Part shown: one piece after another, positions 15,891 through 25,419 of the stretch
How positions within the stretch are numbered: position 1 is the stretch's first letter
How the letters are laid out: each line of letters starts with the position of its first letter
Source of the DNA: Candidatus Kapaibacterium sp.
GTDB lineage: Bacteria; Bacteroidota; Ignavibacteria; Kapaibacteriales; UBA2268
Assembly (NCBI GenBank): GCA_963665665.1
Contig: OY762428.1
Coordinates: 3,776,001-3,840,000 of the forward strand
DNA: 64,000 bases
Direction of reading: 5' to 3'
The notes under the pieces: generated by a model
Database searches by the model: none
What the model saw: only the letters and a program-made list of their open reading frames with translations
Told to the model about the DNA's origin: nothing
Position numbers and translations under genes: made by a program

Positions 15891-18530
15891 ATGAAGAAAA
15901 ACATTGATAAAACAGCAAATAAAATTAAAAGTTCTATTGAAGAAGAAGCCATTAATCCAGTCGCAATCAATTGCCCGGATTTTCCAATCGTGGGAATCGG
16001 TGCCTCTGCCGGAGGGCTGGAGGCTTTAGAACAATTCCTGGGTAATGTCCCTGATAACTGTGGGATGGCTTTCGTTGTGATTCAGCATCTGGATCCGCAT
16101 CACGTTGGAGTAATGCCCGAATTATTGCAGCGAACCACCAGTATGAAAGTGCTGCAGGTTAGCGATAAAATGCAAGTGCAGCCAAATCACTTGTATGTAA
16201 TTCCCCCGAACAAAAGCATGTCCATATTAAAAAACTTTCTGCATTTGTTTGAACCGGTTGAAACAAGGGGACTCAGGCTTCCGATAGATTTGTTTTTCCG
16301 TTCATTGGCAGAGGACTTGCAGGAAAGGAGTATTGGCATTATTCTTTCCGGTATGGGCTCAGACGGCAGTCTGGGGTTGCAGGCGATCAAAGAAAAGAAC
16401 GGCATCGTGCTTGTTCAGGATCCCCTCACAGCCAAATTCGACGGTATGCCCGGTAGCGCAATCAAATCCGTGGTCGTGGATATTTCTGCAGCAGCAAATG
16501 AACTGCCTGCAAAACTGATAGATTTTATCAAATACAAACCTGCCGGAATGAGGAAAATCGGAATTGATAATGATAAAAAGAACTATCTCGAAAAAATAAT
16601 GATTCTGTTGCGTTCCCAAACCGGACACGATTTTTCGTTGTATAAGAAAAATACTTTGTACAGACGCTTAGAAAGGCGTATAAACATACATCAAATTGAC
16701 AAAATTGAGCATTACGTCAGGTTTTTGCAGAATAACCCAACCGAAATAGATATACTTTTTAAAGAGTTGTTAATCGGGGTAACTAATTTTTTCCGCGAAG
16801 CTGAAGTTTGGGAAAAACTGAAAGATAGCATCTTCCCTGAATTGTTCAGGGATTTACCTGACGGATATATCCTTCGGGCATGGGTTGCAGGTTGCTCTAC
16901 CGGAGAAGAAGCATATTCATTGGCAATTATTTTCCAGGAAGCTTACCAAAAAATAAAACATGAAAAAAATATAACACTCCAAATATTCGCGACTGATATT
17001 GACAGCGACGCAATAGCAATCGCCAGAAATGGATTTTTCAGCTCGAATATTGCTACTGATGTTTCGGAGGAAAGGCTCAGGAATTATTTTTCAACCGACG
17101 AAAATGGCTTTCGGATTAATTCGGCCATTCGCGAAATGGTGATTTTTGCGACACACAATGTAATCAAAGACCCACCATTCACAAAATTAGACATGCTCTC
17201 TTGCCGTAATTTATTGATTTACATGGAAGCCGAATTGCAGAAGAGGCTGATGAACCTATTTCATTACAGTTTAAATCAAGGCGGTTTCATGCTACTTGGC
17301 AATGCCGAAAATGATAATTCTCAAACCAATCATTTCATACCAATTGATGAAAAGCAAAAGCTGTATAAACGCTCTGAAACCCCGGTGAATTCTCAATTGC
17401 TTGAATTCCCAAGTTCATTTCACCATACCCCGGTACAAACATCCCTCGAAATCAAAACAGTGAAAAATTCAGAAAATATCCAGACTATCGCGGATCAAAT
17501 CATTCTTCAGCGATTCGCGCCGGCAAGTGTATTAATAAACCGGGATGGAGATATTTTATATATCACCGGCCGTACGGGTAAATATTTGGAACCCGCTGCC
17601 GGAAAAGCCAACTGGAATATCTACGCCATGGCAAGGGAGGGATTGAACACCGAACTTCCCGGAGCCATCAGGAAAGCCAGACAAAGTTTCGAACCCGTAA
17701 TATTGCATAATATCAAAGTTGGAACTAATGGCGGAACTCAAATCGTTAATATTACCTTTCAAATGATTGAAAAACCTGATGCTATTAAAGGTACAATAAT
17801 GATTGTGTTTGAAGATGTCGCCGATATTCCCGGGCCGGTCAGAAAAAAAATGAAAAATGTCAACGCCGAATCCACTATTCGAGAGCATGAATTAGAACTT
17901 GAAGTACAGAGGTCAAAAGAAGAACTTCAAAAAACTCGCGAGGAAATGCAGACAACGCAGGAAGAATTGAAATCGACCAACGAGGAAATGCAGTCCACAA
18001 ATGAAGAATTGCAGTCAACCAACGAAGAACTCACTACGTCCAAGGAAGAAATGCAAAGCCTGAATGAAGAGCTTCAAACCGTTAACATTGAATTGCAAAG
18101 CAAGATAAATGACTACATGGTAGCCAATAACGATATGAAGAATCTCCTGAACAGTACAGATATCGCCACCTTGTTCCTCGACAAGGAGCTAAACATCCGG
18201 CGTTATACCGACCAGTTGACAAAACTTTTCAAGTTGCGCCCGACTGATGTGGGAAGGCCTTTTACAGACATGGTAACGGATTTGCGTTATCCCGAAATAA
18301 CCGATCATGCCATGGAGGTATTGCGAACCCTCGTATTCATAGAAACCGACATTTCAACGCACGACCAACGTTGGTTCAAGGTTCGAATAATGCCCTACCG
18401 CACTTTCGACGACCGAATAGACGGGCTGGTGATAACATTCATTGATATCAGCCAGGCTAAAAAAGTCGAGAACGAGCTTAATGAAACTATTGCTTTACTT
18501 CAAAAGCATGATTTATACAAAAAAACATGA
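15891..18530 (+). CDS. CheB methylesterase-CheR methyltransferase fusion with PAS and coiled-coil domains
   Basis: GIGASAGGLEA, IQHL, LSGMGSDG (CheB triad); WVAGCSTGEEAYS, IFATDID, SCRNLLIY (CheR); EELQSTNEEL repeats; C-terminal PAS. Confidence 0.95.
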   Translation: MKKNIDKTANKIKSSIEEEAINPVAINCPDFPIVGIGASAGGLEALEQFLGNVPDNCGMAFVVIQHLDPHHVGVMPELLQRTTSMKVLQVSDKMQVQPNHLYVIPPNKSMSILKNFLHLFEPVETRGLRLPIDLFFRSLAEDLQERSIGIILSGMGSDGSLGLQAIKEKNGIVLVQDPLTAKFDGMPGSAIKSVVVDISAAANELPAKLIDFIKYKPAGMRKIGIDNDKKNYLEKIMILLRSQTGHDFSLYKKNTLYRRLERRINIHQIDKIEHYVRFLQNNPTEIDILFKELLIGVTNFFREAEVWEKLKDSIFPELFRDLPDGYILRAWVAGCSTGEEAYSLAIIFQEAYQKIKHEKNITLQIFATDIDSDAIAIARNGFFSSNIATDVSEERLRNYFSTDENGFRINSAIREMVIFATHNVIKDPPFTKLDMLSCRNLLIYMEAELQKRLMNLFHYSLNQGGFMLLGNAENDNSQTNHFIPIDEKQKLYKRSETPVNSQLLEFPSSFHHTPVQTSLEIKTVKNSENIQTIADQIILQRFAPASVLINRDGDILYITGRTGKYLEPAAGKANWNIYAMAREGLNTELPGAIRKARQSFEPVILHNIKVGTNGGTQIVNITFQMIEKPDAIKGTIMIVFEDVADIPGPVRKKMKNVNAESTIREHELELEVQRSKEELQKTREEMQTTQEELKSTNEEMQSTNEELQSTNEELTTSKEEMQSLNEELQTVNIELQSKINDYMVANNDMKNLLNSTDIATLFLDKELNIRRYTDQLTKLFKLRPTDVGRPFTDMVTDLRYPEITDHAMEVLRTLVFIETDISTHDQRWFKVRIMPYRTFDDRIDGLVITFIDISQAKKVENELNETIALLQKHDLYKKT

Positions 18531-18568
18531 AAAAGCAATAAACATGAAAAAGCAATAAACATGAAAAA
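18523..18568 (+). repeat. 17-bp tandem repeat (about 2.7 copies) spanning the stop/start junction
   Basis: aaacatgaaaaagcaat at 18523 and 18540, partial copy at 18557. Confidence 0.9.
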
Positions 18569-21035
18569 ACAAAAAAGCAATTTAACCGATGAGGCAATTC
18601 TACGCCAGAAGGCGGAAGAGCTTCTAAGGGCGAAGGCTTCTAAGGGCTTCGCTAAACCCAAAACTACTGAAAGCGACCTGTTGAGACTGGTTCACGAATT
18701 GCAGGTACACCAGATTGAACTGGAAATGCAGAATGAAGAGCTATTAATCGCAAAAGAAAGGGCGGAACTTGCCGAAGAAAAATATTCTGATTTATACGAC
18801 TTCGCACCTTCCGGCTATCTTGCTCTTACTAAAGAAGGTGATATTTCAGTATTAAATTTAGCTGCTGCCCGTTTACTTGGAAGTACTCGCTCGTATCTGA
18901 TAAATAAAAAATTCGCACTATTCGTTTCCCCGGATACCCGTTTATCCTTTAACAGGTTTTCCCAGGAGATTTTTAAAAGTCGTATTAAGCATTCATGTCA
19001 GATTGTTATTATAGATAAGGATAATTTACCGTTATATATAAACATTGATGGGATAATCAGTGAAAATAATCAATTATGTATCTTGACTTTAACTGACGTT
19101 TCCATCCACGTACGAGATCAGGAAGCCCTGCGCAAAAAAGAAGCCTTGCAAATGAAGATGGTCTCAAATATCGGCGATGTTATAGTAATAATCGATAAAT
19201 GGGGAATCAATAGATATAAAAGCCCGAATGTTGAAGCTTTGTTCGGTTGGAAACCTGAAGAACTCGTTGGTAAAAATACCTGGGATAACGTGCATCCTGA
19301 TGATTTGAAGAAGGGGCATGATTTTATTGAGTCGCTTGCAGACAAACCCAACTCGAAGGGAACTATAGAATTACGATACAGGCGCGGGGACGGGAGTTAT
19401 GTATGGATTGAAATTACTGTTGTTAATTTGTTTCATGACCCAGATGTTGGCGGACTTTTAGGAAATTATCATGATATCAGCGAACGAATACGAATAGAGA
19501 ATAGTCTTCGGGAAAAAGATCTTCAATTCAGGAAACTGTCTTCGAATGCCCCTGTTGTAATTTATCAAATTACCAGGCGTGATGACAGAAGTTATTGTGT
19601 TCCCATTTCTTCCGATAGAATTACTAACATTTTTGGATGCCTTCCGGAAGACCTGGTTGACACTTTTGATCCTATCAGCAGGGTCATTCATCCCGAGGAT
19701 CTGGAGAAATTTTTATACGATATTGAATATTCGGCAGAGTATCTGACTCCTTTCAGCTGTGAATTCAGGGTTCGGGTTCCCGGAAGAAATAATCAATGTA
19801 TTTTAACTAACTCAATTCCTGAAAAATTACCCGATGGTAGTGTAACCTGGTACGGATTTTTTGCCGATATCACAGATAAAAAAAGAATAGAAGGAGAATT
19901 GCAGAAGCTGGCAAAACTCGAATCTCTTGGAATCCTTGCCGGGGGTATAGCCCATAATTTCAAAAATATACTCACGACAATATCTCTTAGCGCCGAATTG
20001 GCAAGGATAAAACCAAACCGAACAGAATACCACCTTGACAAAATAACTAAATCTATCAGCCAGGCATCTGCCCTGGCAACAAGATTCCAGACATTTTCGA
20101 AATGCGACTCTCCTGTACTGAGTGCTACCCAGATAAATGAAACTATAAAGGAGGCTTGCGAAATATCTTTAGCCGGTTCCAGGGCAAATATTTATTTGAA
20201 CCTTGACAGTAATTTGCCGGATATTATGGCCGATGAGAAACAAATGAACGAGGTTTTTACAAATCTGTTAATCAATGCTGACCAGGCAATGCCGAATGGA
20301 GGCAATATTAATATCAGTACTCGTTACGTGCTATTGCAAAAAGGGCAAATAGTAAATTTACCGGATGGAAAATATATTTGTATTGAAATCAAAGATGAAG
20401 GGGGAGGAATACCTAAATCGATAATAAATGAAATATTTACACCATTTTTCACTACAAAGTCAGACGGGCAGGGCTTAGGCCTGGCTTCTGTTTTTTTTAT
20501 TATTGAAAAGCATAACGGAGCAATTAACGTAGAAACAGAAATTGATAAAGGTACGAACTTCATTATTTATTTACCGATCGGTATTTGCAAGAAAATGAAT
20601 ATTGAATTTGAAGAATTAGCAGTTACATTTGATAAAAGATTAAAAATACTTCTTTTGGATGATGATGTCAACATAACATCTAACTTCGAGGAAATGGCCA
20701 GGGAATTGAATTTCAATATGCTTTGCATGAATGACCCGCGTCTGGCTATTGAACAATATGAGTTTAGTATGGAAAGTGAGCCCTTAGATTTGGTTATTCT
20801 TGATTTGACTTTAAAAGGCTATTCGATGGGGGGATTGGATGTATTAAACGAGCTTAAAAAGCTTAATCCCCGAATAAAAGCCCTTGTTTTCAGCGGGCAT
20901 TCCTCGAGGCCAATTGTAGCGGATTACGAGAAGTACGGTTTTGTCGGGAGAATTGAAAAACCAATCAACTGGAAACAATTTAATAATGAACTCGATAGAA
21001 TCCAAAGGCTTATAAATGCTGAAAAAAACCAGTAA
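18561..21035 (+). CDS. Multi-PAS hybrid sensor histidine kinase with receiver domain
   Basis: ELQVHQIELEMQNEEL coil; PAS motifs (VHPDD, IHPED); H-box LAGGIAHNF; NLLINADQAM, D.GGGI, FFTTK, GQGLGL; receiver LLLDDD...ILDL...EKP. Confidence 0.93.
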   Translation: MKKQKSNLTDEAILRQKAEELLRAKASKGFAKPKTTESDLLRLVHELQVHQIELEMQNEELLIAKERAELAEEKYSDLYDFAPSGYLALTKEGDISVLNLAAARLLGSTRSYLINKKFALFVSPDTRLSFNRFSQEIFKSRIKHSCQIVIIDKDNLPLYINIDGIISENNQLCILTLTDVSIHVRDQEALRKKEALQMKMVSNIGDVIVIIDKWGINRYKSPNVEALFGWKPEELVGKNTWDNVHPDDLKKGHDFIESLADKPNSKGTIELRYRRGDGSYVWIEITVVNLFHDPDVGGLLGNYHDISERIRIENSLREKDLQFRKLSSNAPVVIYQITRRDDRSYCVPISSDRITNIFGCLPEDLVDTFDPISRVIHPEDLEKFLYDIEYSAEYLTPFSCEFRVRVPGRNNQCILTNSIPEKLPDGSVTWYGFFADITDKKRIEGELQKLAKLESLGILAGGIAHNFKNILTTISLSAELARIKPNRTEYHLDKITKSISQASALATRFQTFSKCDSPVLSATQINETIKEACEISLAGSRANIYLNLDSNLPDIMADEKQMNEVFTNLLINADQAMPNGGNINISTRYVLLQKGQIVNLPDGKYICIEIKDEGGGIPKSIINEIFTPFFTTKSDGQGLGLASVFFIIEKHNGAINVETEIDKGTNFIIYLPIGICKKMNIEFEELAVTFDKRLKILLLDDDVNITSNFEEMARELNFNMLCMNDPRLAIEQYEFSMESEPLDLVILDLTLKGYSMGGLDVLNELKKLNPRIKALVFSGHSSRPIVADYEKYGFVGRIEKPINWKQFNNELDRIQRLINAEKNQ

Positions 21036-21307: not shown

Positions 21308-21347
21308 TAAAAAGAAAAGATCTTCCAGGGGCTTGCCCGGAAGATCT
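21308..21347 (-). terminator. Intrinsic terminator after the Rieske operon
   Basis: agatcttcc...ggaagatct stem followed by a T-rich run on the minus strand. Confidence 0.65.
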
Positions 21348-21375: not shown

Positions 21376-21870
21376 TTAAAAATATATTTCCAGAAGGCCT
21401 GTACCGGCATCAAACTTACTCGGGAATTCTTTTAGCGCTTTTTCGGCGGGGCCTTTGATTGGATTTCCGTGGTCAAATGGATCGAACCTGGAGCCGTGGC
21501 AGTAGCATACAATATCGGTGCGCCCCGGTCGCGGCAGACGTAAGTCGTCGCCGAAGCAGTTGGCGTGAGTGCAAAGCGAGGAGAAACATGCAAAAGCATC
21601 ATCGGCAATACGAACGATTATTATCGGGATTCCAAAGTTTACATGAGTCCATCTTTGAATCACAGACCCTCCAATCCGGGCCAGTGTTTCTTCGGGGTTT
21701 GTATCGAATTCCACCATTCCGCCGGTCAGTCCCTGGTTCTTCTCCCTGTCGAACTCGCAGGAAACCAGTCCGCTGACGGCTGCAACAGTTGCCGGGCAAA
21801 GGCCAAGCAATGCCAGGCCTTTTTTCATAAAATCCCTTCTCTCATCCGATAAAGTTTTATCTCTTTCCAT
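21376..21870 (-). CDS. Tat-exported Rieske [2Fe-2S] lipoprotein
   Basis: RRDFMK twin-arginine motif, lipobox-like LVSC; Rieske boxes CTHANC and CYCHGSRFD; GPA. Confidence 0.85.
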   Translation of the reverse strand: MERDKTLSDERRDFMKKGLALLGLCPATVAAVSGLVSCEFDREKNQGLTGGMVEFDTNPEETLARIGGSVIQRWTHVNFGIPIIIVRIADDAFACFSSLCTHANCFGDDLRLPRPGRTDIVCYCHGSRFDPFDHGNPIKGPAEKALKEFPSKFDAGTGLLEIYF

Positions 21871-22652
21871 TACCTGCTTACCGCCATTTTCTTAGTTCTC
21901 TTTCTGCCGTCCGCTGTTTCCAGACTAATAATATAAGCGCCAACCTGCAATCCAGAAACGTTAATATCAATATCATAGTTTCCGGAATCAACAAATTTAT
22001 TGCTGAAAACGGTTAAAACCTGATTCCCGATTGAATCGTAAACTTTCAGGGAATATTGTCCGGGAAGTTCCACGCCATAGCCGACGGATGTTGTGTTGCT
22101 GCACGGGTTGGGATAGTTTTGCCGGAGATAAAGCAATCCTTCGCTTTCGTCTTCAATACCAACAAGAACTGCGGGAATATCAAGATACAGGCTGTCGCCG
22201 CCATTCCATCGAACTTCAAATGTCTGCAGGTCTTCGGCTGCAGGCCCGTCCACATAAGTGCCGTCGGCTTTAAAAATTGTGCCGTGGCCGGAGCATTCAA
22301 ACTCGTGGTAAATATCAAGGTCGTAAACCGATTCACCTTCGTGCGGGCACAATGTATAAATGCAGGAATAGTGTTTGCCGTATTCTTCGTAATCAAGTTT
22401 GGTGACGATAATTGGTGCAAAAAAACCATCAGTGATATCGTTTGGAATTTGTATCCTGACAGATCCCCAGACTTCCTTTAGTTCGGGATAATCTTTCAGG
22501 CTGATGTGGTATGTACCCATTATTTCATCTTTATTCTTTTTAAGCGAAGGAGTAACTACTCCTTTCAATATGTGCGGGCAGGCAGGAGTAAATATACTGA
22601 TAGCCAGCATATTTTTCAGGAACTGCCTTCTGCGATTGCTGATGTTTTTCAT
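21870..22652 (-). CDS. Tat-signal Rieske [2Fe-2S] domain fused to a T9SS C-terminal sorting domain
   Basis: RRRQFLK; CPHEG...CSGHGTIF...GPA; QNYPNP...LQVGAYIISL...KKMAVSR; TAATG overlap with the next gene. Confidence 0.85.
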   Translation of the reverse strand: MKNISNRRRQFLKNMLAISIFTPACPHILKGVVTPSLKKNKDEIMGTYHISLKDYPELKEVWGSVRIQIPNDITDGFFAPIIVTKLDYEEYGKHYSCIYTLCPHEGESVYDLDIYHEFECSGHGTIFKADGTYVDGPAAEDLQTFEVRWNGGDSLYLDIPAVLVGIEDESEGLLYLRQNYPNPCSNTTSVGYGVELPGQYSLKVYDSIGNQVLTVFSNKFVDSGNYDIDINVSGLQVGAYIISLETADGRKRTKKMAVSR

Positions 22653-22672
22653 TTATATTGCCTCGATAAATA

Positions 22673-23752
22673 TCAAAAATTATCTGTTGGTTTTTTAAAT
22701 TTCTTATTTGCAAGGAACTCGTGGTCAGTAAGTGATTTCAGGAAAGCAACCAGGTCTGCTTTTTCCTGTTCGGTCAGGTTCAGGGGCCTCATCAGCGGGT
22801 CGCGATTGAAGAAGGGCTTCCCGCCCCTGTTATAATGGTTAATAACGTCTTCGAGTGTTTCAAGGTCTCCGTTGTGATAGTAGGGCGCTGTCATTTCAAT
22901 ATTTCTGAGCGTGGGGGTGATAAATACTCCCCAGTCCTTGAAATTCATTGTTTTATAATACCTGCCTTTATCAAAATAATGTGTTGTAACACCGGTATTA
23001 TGGAATTTCATATCTGTAAAGAATATTCCCGAATGGCACTGCGAGCAGTTGGTTTTAGTAGTATCAAAGTACAGTTTCATCCCGCGTATTTCGGATTCGT
23101 TCAGAGCGGCCAGGTCTCCGCGCCTGTATTTGTCATAATCAGAGTTGCCGGAGATAAGAGTTCTTACAAATGTTGAAATTGCCAGGGATACATTAGTTGC
23201 CGTCGGTTTTGCCCCTTTGCCGAAAGCTTTTTCGAACATGGAGGGATAAAGCGGATGTTCGGACAACCTTTTTTCAATTTCATTGGTATCGGCGCCCAGA
23301 ATTTGGTTCAGCCAGAGGCTTCTGTAGGCAGGCCCTTCAATTCTTCTGCCACGTCCGTCCCAGAAAAGCTTATCCCTGTAGGCAGCATTTATCAGGCACA
23401 TGGCATTTCGCGGTTCCGGTTCAAGCTCATTTGCCCTGCTCACAGGTGTGCAGTCCGAGAAAGAATACTCAGGCTTCATACAATGAGAGCAGGATGGCAG
23501 ATTCATGTCGCGGGAAAGCAGTTTTTCATAAAAAAGCCTTCGGCCAAGTTCAGCTTTTTCCTTTGTAATTGGATTGTATTCCGGTTGTGGAACGGGCGGA
23601 AAATCTTCCGGTACAGTCAAAAAGCCTTCTTTCTTTTCAGTTTCCGACTCAACAATGGAGGAGCATGAAAAAGATGAAAGAAGAGCCGTAAGAATTATGA
23701 GAATAGAAAATTTATATATTAGAATCGATTTATTACTGTTCATTTCGTTCAC
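22673..23752 (-). CDS. Di-heme cytochrome c peroxidase/MauG/MbnH-family lipoprotein with an atypical first heme motif
   Basis: NPITKEKAELGRRLFYEKLLS, SCSHCM, RNA..L.N, FWDGR, NCSQCH, TPTLRNI..TAPYYHNG...VINHY, LTEQEKADLVAFLKSL; lipobox-like SFSC. Confidence 0.9.
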   Translation of the reverse strand: MNEMNSNKSILIYKFSILIILTALLSSFSCSSIVESETEKKEGFLTVPEDFPPVPQPEYNPITKEKAELGRRLFYEKLLSRDMNLPSCSHCMKPEYSFSDCTPVSRANELEPEPRNAMCLINAAYRDKLFWDGRGRRIEGPAYRSLWLNQILGADTNEIEKRLSEHPLYPSMFEKAFGKGAKPTATNVSLAISTFVRTLISGNSDYDKYRRGDLAALNESEIRGMKLYFDTTKTNCSQCHSGIFFTDMKFHNTGVTTHYFDKGRYYKTMNFKDWGVFITPTLRNIEMTAPYYHNGDLETLEDVINHYNRGGKPFFNRDPLMRPLNLTEQEKADLVAFLKSLTDHEFLANKKFKKPTDNF

Positions 23753-23955: not shown

Positions 23956-24495
23956 ATGAAAAGCTTTAATAAGATCATAATGCTTGTTTTTGTGGCAATG
24001 GCGCTTTTGGCAGCCTGCGATGATAATGATACGGTGGAAAGAGCCGAATACGTTACTATGGATGAATTACTAAAATTACCCGGTTACGAGTGGGTAACCT
24101 ACGAAATGAAAGACTATTCCCCCGATCCTGTAATGGTTTCGGATATTGCCGAGGCTTTTGATATCAACCGGCACAGATTTCTTTTCTTCCTGAAGCCCGG
24201 ATGTACCTGCATCGATCCTGAAGTTCCGCTGGCATGGATGTTTAAAACCCTTGATGAAGCTGATATCAGTGATTTTTACAGGGAAATCTATATTATGAAG
24301 GATAAAGATATCGAGCATCCCTATCAGGACAATTTTCAGTTGAACCGTGTGTCATCATATTTGCTTATGGATATGACAGATACAACTGTAATTCTATCAC
24401 TCAGGGATACAATCGATCAGATAATATTTTACTCTCCTGACAGCCTTAAGTATTTGAATATTGAAGAATTGGTTCTTCACGCTCTTCAAAAATAA
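23956..24495 (+). CDS. Lipoprotein, possible thioredoxin-like fold with a CxC motif
   Basis: Lipobox LAAC; FLFFLKPGCTC followed by a helix; fold assignment is an inference. Confidence 0.55.
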   Translation: MKSFNKIIMLVFVAMALLAACDDNDTVERAEYVTMDELLKLPGYEWVTYEMKDYSPDPVMVSDIAEAFDINRHRFLFFLKPGCTCIDPEVPLAWMFKTLDEADISDFYREIYIMKDKDIEHPYQDNFQLNRVSSYLLMDMTDTTVILSLRDTIDQIIFYSPDSLKYLNIEELVLHALQK

Positions 24496-24517
24496 GTTTC
24501 ATGTTTCGGATAATGTT

Positions 24518-24925
24518 ATGAAGCATTGGTTAGTAAAATCAGATCCCGACAGTTATGGCTGGGAGGAAATGAAAAGAGACAGAAAAACCGATTGGGACGG
24601 GGTAAGAAATTATCAGGCAAGAAATAACCTGAAAGAAATGAAAAAAGGCGACAAAGTACTTTTCTACCACAGTGTTAAAGATAAAACCGTTGTTGGTGTT
24701 ACAGAAGTTAGCAGGGAGTTTTACCAGGATCCCACAACGGATGATGAAAGATGGGTGGCCGTAGAGCTAACGTTTTCGGAAGAGTTTAAAAATGAAGTAA
24801 GCCTGAAAGATATTAAAGGGCGGGCCTCTTTATCTGAAATTGCTCTGATCAGGCAGTCAAGATTATCGGTTATGCCCTTAACAAAGAAAGAATTTACAGA
24901 GGTATGTAAGATGGGTGGTATATAA
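24518..24925 (+). CDS. EVE domain protein
   Basis: HWLVKSDP, WDGVRNYQARN, GDKVLFYHS, SRLSVMP; start moved to the ATG at 24518. Confidence 0.92.
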   Translation: MKHWLVKSDPDSYGWEEMKRDRKTDWDGVRNYQARNNLKEMKKGDKVLFYHSVKDKTVVGVTEVSREFYQDPTTDDERWVAVELTFSEEFKNEVSLKDIKGRASLSEIALIRQSRLSVMPLTKKEFTEVCKMGGI

Positions 24926-24986: not shown

Positions 24987-25208
24987 ATGACACGTCAGTT
25001 TGGAAGCATTATTAGCAAGGATGAGGATATGTTCGTTGCCTTGTGTCCGGAATTGGATATTGTCAGCCAGGGATATACGATTGAGGAAGCACGGTATAAT
25101 CTGAAAGAAGCAATTGAACTTTTCTTTGAATGCGCTCCTGATAGTGAAGTAAAAAGAAGGATGAAGTCAGAATCTTATTATACCAATATTGAGGTTGAGA
25201 TTGCCTAA
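24987..25208 (+). CDS. hicB: HicB-family antitoxin (short form)
   Basis: FVALCPELDIVSQGYTIEEARYNLKEAIELF. Confidence 0.88.
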   Translation: MTRQFGSIISKDEDMFVALCPELDIVSQGYTIEEARYNLKEAIELFFECAPDSEVKRRMKSESYYTNIEVEIA

Positions 25209-25419
25209 AAGGAAAGTATATTCCGGAAAGGATATTATTAAAATTTTAGAAATATATGGCTTTATTGAAATTAGACAAAAAGGAAGCCATATTGTAATGC
25301 AAAAGTCAACTAAAAATTCAAAAATAACGATACCTGTTCCTGATCATAAAGAACTTAAAGCCGGGACATTGAATTCAATAATCAGACAATCAGGGTTAGA
25401 TAAAAGGATTTTGAAATAA
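25201..25419 (+). CDS. hicA: HicA-family mRNase toxin
   Basis: SGKDIIKILE.YGF.EIRQKGSHIVM...IPVPDHKELKAGTLNSIIRQSG; probable TTG start overlapping hicB. Confidence 0.88.
   Translation: MPKRKVYSGKDIIKILEIYGFIEIRQKGSHIVMQKSTKNSKITIPVPDHKELKAGTLNSIIRQSGLDKRILK

Follow-up and report, generated by a model that had tools for sequence, protein, structure and literature searches.

Introduction

The closest described relatives of the system analyzed here are MbnH and MauG, two haem enzymes of the bacterial cytochrome c peroxidase (bCCP) superfamily. The system is a set of three genes in a 64,000-nucleotide stretch of DNA from Candidatus Kapaibacterium sp. (assembly GCA_963665665.1, contig OY762428.1, positions 3,776,001 to 3,840,000; hereafter the window), of which gene 1 encodes an MbnH-like haem protein and genes 2 and 3 encode Rieske [2Fe-2S] proteins. 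MbnH (PDB 6e1c, titled 'MauG-like protein associated with microbial copper homeostasis'; di-heme family model TIGR04039) is the best match of gene 1 in both sequence and fold. The two have in common the Tyr at the ligand position of the C-terminal haem, the Trp of the FWDGR motif and the second CXXCH. They differ in the first motif, which is SCSSCH in 6e1c and CSHCM in gene 1, and in the distal Gln and Glu, which are replaced in gene 1. Furthermore, gene 1 lies next to two Rieske genes and has no MbnP neighbor, unlike MbnH. MauG, the tryptophan tryptophylquinone maturase (PDB 3l4m, TIGR03791), belongs to the same superfamily, follows the same His/Tyr haem logic and superposes on gene 1 with a template modeling score (TM) of ~0.69; gene 1, like the MauG gene, adjoins genes for exported redox proteins. 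However, the phmmer match of MauG to gene 1 is limited to residues 122-309, there are no methylamine dehydrogenase (MADH) genes beside gene 1, and the motif at the position of the five-coordinate haem is non-canonical.

The canonical di-haem peroxidases (PDB 1nml, 1eb7 and 1iqc) share with gene 1 the CCP_MauG domain and the overall fold, but they present a Met ligand, two CXXCH motifs and the residues EEQ...P.EM, whereas gene 1 has a Tyr, one CXXCH and no EEQ...P.EM. There are precedents for covalent haem in which the His of a CXXCH does not act as the ligand: NrfA uses CXXCK, the CXXCH His of the alpha haem of hydrazine synthase sits on zinc, and haem 1 of NrfH has a Met ligand. To our knowledge, a His inside the CXXC (C-x-H-C) is found in none of these sites.

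Electron-transfer Rieske proteins (PetC of the b6f complex, AioB of arsenite oxidase, the actinobacterial QcrA, and SoxF) share with genes 2 and 3 the CxH...CxxH cluster-binding subdomain. Gene 3, like AioB and the bc1 Rieske protein, also has two disulfide cysteines and a twin-arginine signal. Nonetheless, the matches to PetC, AioB, QcrA and SoxF are weak and cover the cluster-binding part only, and neither a cytochrome b nor a molybdoenzyme partner accompanies genes 2 and 3. Gene 2, unlike those proteins, ends in a sorting domain of the type IX secretion system (T9SS). Type A T9SS cargo proteins have this C-terminal domain in common with gene 2, and SprA is encoded in the genome. Known cargo carry Sec signals, whereas gene 2 has a conserved twin-arginine motif, RRxFLK, and a cofactor that would be assembled in the cytoplasm.

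Organization of the three genes

The three genes form a tight unit on the minus strand that is conserved as a whole within one family, and the haem protein belongs to a clade in which the first haem motif is altered throughout. The features of the unit, in window coordinates, are the following:

22673..23752, minus strand: gene 1, CCP_MauG protein of the MbnH/MauG branch, putative lipoprotein (open reading frame and Pfam PF03150)
23477..23491, minus strand: altered first haem motif of gene 1, Cys88-Ser-His90-Cys91-Met92 (read from the DNA; aligns with SCSSCH of 6e1c)
23033..23047, minus strand: second haem c motif of gene 1, CSQCH, intact (read from the DNA)
22832..22834, minus strand: Tyr307 of gene 1 (VINHY), axial-ligand position of the C-terminal haem (alignment with 6e1c and 1nml)
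21870..22652, minus strand: gene 2, Rieske [2Fe-2S] protein of 260 amino acids (aa) with twin-arginine motif RRRQFLK and C-terminal type A T9SS sorting domain
21376..21870, minus strand: gene 3, small Rieske [2Fe-2S] protein of 164 aa with twin-arginine motif RRDFMKK and lipobox-like LVSC
21318..21347, minus strand: terminator-like, G+C-rich hairpin 3' of gene 3 (12-bp stem with 6 G-C pairs, followed by the T run TTTCTTTTTA)

Gene 1 encodes 359 aa from a GTG start at 23752 or 356 aa from an ATG start at 23743, the latter being the form entered in the protein collection; residues are numbered here on the 359-aa form. As an earlier note on this DNA had stated, the list of open reading frames and the reading of the DNA give three head-to-tail genes, genes 1 and 2 being 20 bp apart, genes 2 and 3 sharing 1 nt at a stop/start overlap (TAATG), and the terminator following the last. 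This spacing suggests that the three genes are co-transcribed. The same note had reported that no gene for MbnP, a MADH subunit or a cytochrome b is present, and Pfam and NCBIfam scans together with the list of open reading frames agree with this for the operon. The flanks likewise showed no MbnP or MADH genes; what accompanies gene 1 in operon and flanks is of the Rieske, thioredoxin-like, EVE or sensor kinase type.

Conservation in related genomes

The earlier note had made its proposal of an exported redox system depend on the conservation of the trio in other genomes. The sample of relatives consisted of 41 genomes: this one, 24 of the same family and 16 of the same order. Full-length orthologues of the Rieske-T9SS protein (E < 1e-45) were found in ten of them, all of one family. 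The trio is conserved there with its gene order kept. In all ten loci the Rieske-T9SS gene lies directly after an MbnH-like gene; the small Rieske gene comes next in nine, and the tenth locus is cut by the end of its contig. The haem gene is of the C-x-H-C type in eight of the ten loci, four of which also carry a canonical paralogue in tandem. The variant thus stands alone in four genomes, including this one, and a canonical haem gene is the only one present in the two remaining loci. Across the family the three genes are present or absent together, with identities of 34-64%, and their order is kept despite different flanks, as in loci L023 and L024. The nearest named relatives are metagenome-assembled genomes labelled Kapabacteria or Ignavibacteria. 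At the level of the class, a Rieske-T9SS match (E <= 1e-25) was present in at least 7 of the 301 genomes sampled, a lower bound since eight candidates per genome were scored.

Gene 1 belongs to the Tyr-ligand branch

Gene 1 matches CCP_MauG (PF03150) with 128.6 bits (cut-off 25.6). Its best NCBIfam model is TIGR04039, the MbnH family, at 241 bits, followed here by the MauG model TIGR03791 at 173 bits; both scores are below the respective equivalog cut-offs (362.85 and 443.85). The AlphaFold2 (AF2) model, with a mean predicted local distance difference test (pLDDT) value of 90.7, presents the two-domain bCCP fold. The best Foldseek hit of this model was 6e1c_A (TM 0.81/0.83, root-mean-square deviation 2.1 A, 34% identity), and the canonical bCCPs and MauG gave TM values of 0.68-0.72. 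By phmmer, gene 1 matches 6e1c with E 9.6e-41.

The ligand residues read from the sequence in the earlier note agree with these alignments. Tyr307 (VINHY) aligns to the Tyr of 6e1c ('DIY') and to the Met of peroxidase 1nml, and the FWDGR Trp (W131) is present in gene 1 and invariant in an alignment of 56 rows (54 variant sequences plus P0256 and P0020). Among the 150 nearest 50%-identity cluster representatives, the ligand column holds Tyr in 143, Phe in six, Lys in one and Met in none. In addition, variant and canonical sequences alike conserve C236, C239 and H240 of the second motif, and Cys30, the putative lipobox Cys, is at least 90% conserved. On this evidence gene 1 is placed in the Tyr-ligand (MbnH/MauG) branch of the bCCP superfamily, apart from the His/Met peroxidases; a grouping with the latter, which the earlier note had seen as contrary to its proposal, was not observed.

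An altered first haem site shared by a whole clade

Gene 1 holds one CXXCH only, the CSQCH, and its first site reads CSHCM where 6e1c has SCSSCH. The label 'di-heme' used in the earlier note does not hold in this form, as there is a single CXXCH and the same Cys-Ser-His-Cys-Met type of change runs through the clade. The reading is neither an error nor an isolated case. CSHC[M/L] recurs in the seven orthologues from related genomes that are closest to gene 1. Of the 90%-identity clusters, the nearest 120 were compared, and the motif is C-x-H-C-[M/L/F/K] in 85 (M in 59, L in 21, F in 3 and K in 2); the remaining 35 comprise one CSHCH, 30 canonical sequences and four N-terminal fragments. A FastTree (LG) phylogeny was built from the 116 sequences that reach 300 aa or more. 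In it a single clade holds all 85 variants together with the CSHCH sequence nested among them, and the sister of this clade is a canonical CGSCH sequence (support of the parent node, 0.97). The clade is narrow, because the variant is absent from the 150 best 50%-identity representatives found among 1.84 billion proteins, 146 of which have CXXCH and four of which do not cover the site.

In the variant clade conservation reaches 100% at His90, 98% at Ser89 and 95-98% over the motif A-Y-R-S (142-145). The distal Gln column is occupied by Pro and the distal Glu column by Ile or Val. A larger superclade, the Rieske-linked one (102 tips, support 0.97), has no EEQ...P.EM distal residues, while the outgroup retains them. 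An apparent Pro at the Gln column of distant representatives was partly due to an alignment shift and was not used. Pairwise identity in the variant clade is 0.575 for the N-terminal domain versus 0.631 for the C-terminal domain; in the canonical comparison set the values are 0.407 versus 0.572. The variant clade also keeps most of the residues that it has in common with haem-binding relatives. Judged by sequence conservation, the N-terminal domain of the clade is not decaying or relaxed, and we conclude that the first site is probably functional but non-canonical, whether or not a haem is retained there. The earlier note had described gene 1 as a MauG/MbnH-type di-heme lipoprotein. Because the N-terminal CXXCH His and the distal Gln and Glu are gone in the whole clade, the di-heme MauG/MbnH type is not sustained and a MauG-style bis-Fe(IV) protein-modifying mechanism cannot simply be assumed.

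Two further candidates were considered and rejected. The CXXCK motif, as in NrfA, needs a dedicated lyase; a dedicated haem lyase for the odd motif of gene 1 was discarded, since PF01578 has two matches in this genome and in seven other variant carriers, against one to four (mostly two) in the other 33 relatives searched, and no extra paralogue goes with the variant. A role of M118 as a ligand peculiar to the variant was likewise discarded: the residue shows 99% conservation in that clade, but Met also occupies this column in 23 of the 150 representatives, nearly all of them canonical.

The Rieske proteins and their export signals

That genes 2 and 3 carry Rieske cofactor motifs, and that gene 2 has a T9SS domain, was well supported by the profile searches. 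Gene 2 matches the Pfam Rieske domain with 27.0 bits (cut-off 20.3), Por_Secre_tail (PF18962) with 36 bits (cut-off 27) and the T9SS sorting domain TIGR04183 with 32.4 bits (cut-off 23). Its ligands, CPH...CSGH (C102-P-H104 and C120/H123), are invariant in the 22 aligned family sequences, and two orthologues (L024:5954-6739 and L025:4515-5300) have CKKGH for CSGH, with one extra residue between the Cys and the His. The same 22 sequences conserve RR and F in the RRxFLK motif at 90% or more and have an invariant PNP core in the sorting domain; the Trp W62 is also invariant, and the Tyr Y133 nearly so. A word-limited search among 5.8 billion proteins found 19 clusters with the Rieske-T9SS architecture. 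Gene 3 matches the Pfam Rieske domain with 39.6 bits (cut-off 20.3), and its ligands CTHANC...CYCH are of the bc1 type (CTHxxC...CxCH), including the disulfide cysteines. In all eight orthologues R11, R12, C38, E39, C100, H102, C105, C122, C124 and H125 are invariant. The matches of both Rieske proteins to PDB profiles, namely PetC, AioB, QcrA and SoxF, have E values of 1e-9 to 1e-5.

Regarding the export machinery, a profile search showed that the genome encodes TatC, a component of twin-arginine translocation (Tat), and the T9SS translocon protein SprA (956 bits). The hidden Markov model of the TAT signal gave no reported match at E <= 0.01 in the Pfam and NCBIfam scans of the three proteins. 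The Tat assignment of genes 2 and 3 and the lipoprotein assignment of genes 1 and 3 follow from their conserved motifs and are putative.

Homologues in other families

Ten loci of other families carry canonical haem homologues with 39-50% identity, and none has a Rieske gene within 1.5 kb. MbnP-like partners were also sought beside these homologues and discarded, since MbnP was found in 0 of the 10 loci. A recurrent neighbor in these families of the order is thyX, the gene of the FAD-dependent thymidylate synthase, which directly adjoins the canonical MbnH-like lipoprotein gene in six of the ten loci (L011, L012, L014, L016, L017 and L019). Separately, some of the nearest representatives of gene 1 (P0021-P0034) are proteins of 700-1400 aa with two or four stretches matching the query, most with four or five CXXCH and one with three; they resemble MbnH-like enzymes that were duplicated and joined into a single polypeptide.

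Weaker homologues of the Rieske-T9SS protein were present in eight loci of other families, where tblastn detected no MbnH-like neighbor. In two of the eight, the Rieske gene is directly followed by a lipoprotein gene (L041:7160-9387 and L042:6459-8751) of the EB_dh-domain type; the L041 lipoprotein matches the EB_dh domain (ethylbenzene dehydrogenase-like, haem-binding), and the L041 Rieske protein matches the T9SS sorting domain weakly, with 21 bits where the cut-off is 27. Another conserved module of the relatives, seen at L043:4281-6955 and L045:6470-9090, is composed of a ~390-aa protein that matches no Pfam family and has one CXXCH, in its N-terminal part, a YceI-domain protein and a small Rieske lipoprotein with a Tat motif. 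This module may be an outer-membrane cytochrome and carrier system. Finally, L046:6178-7269 (363 aa) and L047:6673-7608 (311 aa) encode two tandem Rieske domains per chain, one of them with a match to the bc1-type Tat signal.

Flanking genes

The genes on both sides of the operon are on the plus strand:

15891-18530, plus strand: CheB methylesterase-CheR methyltransferase-PAS fusion, 879 aa; downstream flank, convergent with the operon
18561-21035, plus strand: PAS hybrid histidine kinase with receiver domain, 824 aa; downstream flank, convergent with the operon
23956-24495, plus strand: small thioredoxin-like lipoprotein with an invariant P-x-C-x-C motif; upstream flank, divergent from the operon
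24461-24925, plus strand: EVE-domain protein; upstream flank, next after the thioredoxin-like lipoprotein
24987-25419, plus strand: small overlapping gene pair, the second with a HicA toxin domain (Pfam, 70.5 bits)

The first gene of the HicA pair, which has no Pfam match, is probably a HicB-like antitoxin. RNase HII and methyltransferase genes are also present in the divergent upstream flank. Neither the CheB-CheR-PAS fusion nor the hybrid kinase is kept beside the trio in the loci of the relatives. The CxC thioredoxin-like lipoprotein was considered as a dedicated helper of the trio and rejected: it is adjacent in six of nine loci, yet it occurs in 39 of the 41 relatives regardless of the trio. 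The EVE gene follows it, and the pair diverges from the operon in six of nine loci. We treat this linkage as shared gene order rather than as a functional link. The evidence for the fold of this lipoprotein is also weak (best match 1z6n, E 1.9e-3, TM 0.5; Atlas leads 0.86-0.88).

Discussion

We tentatively favor, at somewhat less than even confidence, the reading that the trio is an operon for an exported electron-transfer module of the cell envelope, in which the Rieske clusters trade electrons with the haem protein. A module with this make-up has probably not been described before. In such a module, gene 1 would be a lipoprotein of the His/Tyr-haem branch with one canonical c-haem and a second, strongly conserved site. 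Its clade would have rebuilt the N-terminal, normally peroxide-reactive site by changing CXXCH into C-x-H-C-[M/L/F/K] and losing the distal Gln and Glu; this second site could harbor an unconventionally ligated haem, a metal or a redox-active disulfide. The products of genes 2 and 3 would presumably be folded and loaded with their clusters in the cytoplasm and exported by Tat. The gene 2 product would then be passed to the T9SS and displayed at the cell surface, and the gene 3 product would be lipid-anchored. Electron exchange between Rieske clusters and haem could thus connect the periplasm or outer membrane with the cell surface through a short relay. The analysis shows the domains, the motifs, a conserved unit and a motif change that spans the clade, whereas the cofactor content, the location, the direction in which electrons flow and the donor or acceptor outside the module are inferred.

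We favor redox partners over obligate substrates of a maturase as the role of the Rieske proteins. They read as electron carriers because they occur without the haem gene, keep all their ligands and elsewhere adjoin other redox proteins. The nearest solved relatives of both are electron-transfer Rieske proteins, and the paralogous exported Rieske genes in the EB_dh and YceI arrangements point to a carrier role in the lineage. Regarding gene 1, either type of haem gene alone can accompany the Rieske pair, and therefore the variant must supply what the canonical two-haem paralogue supplies. This interchangeability argues, indirectly, that the first site of the variant may still carry a redox cofactor. 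In Bacteroidota, acidic residues after the lipid-anchor Cys act as a lipoprotein export signal. Such residues are present in genes 1 and 3, and together with the sorting domain of gene 2 they suggest a surface location for the whole module.

Several points weigh against this reading. The list of open reading frames and the domain scans revealed no quinol-oxidising membrane partner, no quinol oxidase and no obvious candidate for a terminal donor or acceptor in the operon, so neither end of the proposed relay was seen among its genes. Tyr-ligated haems are usually of low potential and bc1-type Rieske clusters of high potential, and this makes the direction of the electron flow ambiguous. MbnH, a close characterised relative, is a protein-modifying enzyme that acts on the product of a neighboring gene. 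For MauG, the other close characterised relative, the accessible part of the published superfamily study likewise describes modification of the protein product of a neighboring gene (PMC6405878). In addition, the accessible part of the preprint on the T9SS cargo predictor T9GPred, built on 102 experimentally identified cargo proteins, gives a Sec signal as required and a Tat signal as excluded (bioRxiv 10.1101/2023.03.31.535141). Gene 2 falls outside that cargo definition because it combines a conserved twin-arginine motif with a T9SS domain, and its surface display would need Tat and then T9SS, a route that the predictor rules out. Moreover, the association of the Rieske proteins with the haem protein is itself predicted from gene linkage.

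A broader version of the proposal, which we hold to be unlikely though with a real chance of being correct, is that a Tat-exported, folded Rieske protein crosses the outer membrane by the T9SS and is wired on the surface to the MbnH-derived C-x-H-C lipoprotein, exchanging electrons extracellularly. The C-x-H-C center would then be a c-haem with unprecedented ligands or a new metal or disulfide redox site, and the extracellular donor or acceptor might be, for example, a mineral of iron or manganese, an oxygen species or a polymer. We know of no cargo for which a route through Tat and then T9SS has been described.

MauG acts on preMADH and MbnH on MbnP, and gene 1 might by analogy be a maturase that acts on one or both Rieske proteins by oxidative modification, the target being for example an aromatic residue or the disulfide of the cluster loop. 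Its top family and structure matches (the MbnH family and 6e1c), the retention of the Tyr ligand and the inter-haem Trp, and the invariant W62 and nearly invariant Y133 of the Rieske-T9SS family all fit this idea, as does gene order, since the substrate genes of MauG and MbnH likewise adjoin the gene of the enzyme. Nevertheless, we consider it distinctly unlikely. The peroxide/O2-reactive haem site of MauG is here without a canonical CXXCH, and the distal Gln and Glu are replaced; gene 1 scores under the equivalog cut-offs of both families; other families hold Rieske-T9SS homologues and small-Rieske paralogues without such an enzyme; and the variant or the canonical haem gene, either alone, accompanies the Rieske pair. 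Of the two roles that the earlier note had inferred, electron transfer and protein modification, we hold the first to be the likelier; for the second, a MauG-style mechanism cannot be taken for granted. The loss of the CXXCH His and of Gln/Glu from the peroxidatic site also speaks against a role in envelope peroxide or oxygen detoxification, in which the Rieske proteins would be the electron donors for H2O2 reduction by the haem protein, the part that cytochrome c or azurin plays for classical bacterial peroxidases. Although membership of CCP_MauG, the bCCP-like fold (Foldseek TM ~0.7) and the export signals on all three products are compatible with this function, the electron-transfer haem has Tyr and not Met, no peroxide-responsive regulator is adjacent, and we give the explanation only a slim chance.

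An equally slim chance is given to an N-terminal site that is haem-free and binds a metal, for example copper, through Cys88, His90 and Cys91, in a module that handles or senses the metal and echoes the copper link of MbnH/MbnP. In favor of it, Cys-x-His-Cys is invariant in 85 clusters while M, L, F or K stands where the His used to be, no extra PF01578 haem-lyase paralogue goes with the variant, and an association with copper homeostasis is named in the title of 6e1c, the nearest solved relative. However, the N-terminal domain is highly conserved and keeps the residues of its haem-binding relatives, which would be unusual after the loss of the haem core; furthermore, the same PAYR pocket goes with a normal CXXCH in the sister sequence P0020, and no copper genes are present in the locus. 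That the three genes are neighbors by descent only, with no shared function, is highly improbable. All trio loci come from one family, whose common ancestry could explain the adjacency, and the divergent neighbors are likewise conserved in position yet found in 39 of 41 genomes irrespective of the trio. Against this stand the tight spacing (20 bp and a 1-nt overlap) with a single terminator, the order kept with differing flanks (L023, L024), the joint presence or absence of the three genes across the family, and identities of 34-64%, which indicate a long divergence with the linkage retained. The exported electron-transfer module remains, for us, the preferred reading.

A literature search (subscription-only papers and supplements lay outside its scope) listed no paper joining MbnH or MauG to Rieske proteins, none on a Tat-exported T9SS cargo and none describing the C-x-H-C haem-site variant; searches with the motif as a word gave only unrelated acronyms among the papers listed. 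In the accessible part of the superfamily network paper (PMC6405878), Rieske proteins and Bacteroidetes are not mentioned.

The MauG/MbnH branch has been studied for its long-range, high-valent haem chemistry, and in our view labelling gene 1 as di-haem hides its most interesting part, the altered first haem motif. A large clade found in nature, with fold, Tyr-haem and Trp bridge retained and the His moved inside the CXXC, offers a ready test of the role of the first site, and also of whether c-haem attachment tolerates C-x-H-C. If the combination of a Tat motif and a T9SS domain on an iron-sulfur protein is real, it would mean that proteins handed over by Tat with their cofactors in place can be exported by the T9SS, and this route would put a Rieske cluster on the bacterial surface. 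In the family studied here, the Rieske proteins would be a new class of partners for MbnH-like enzymes.

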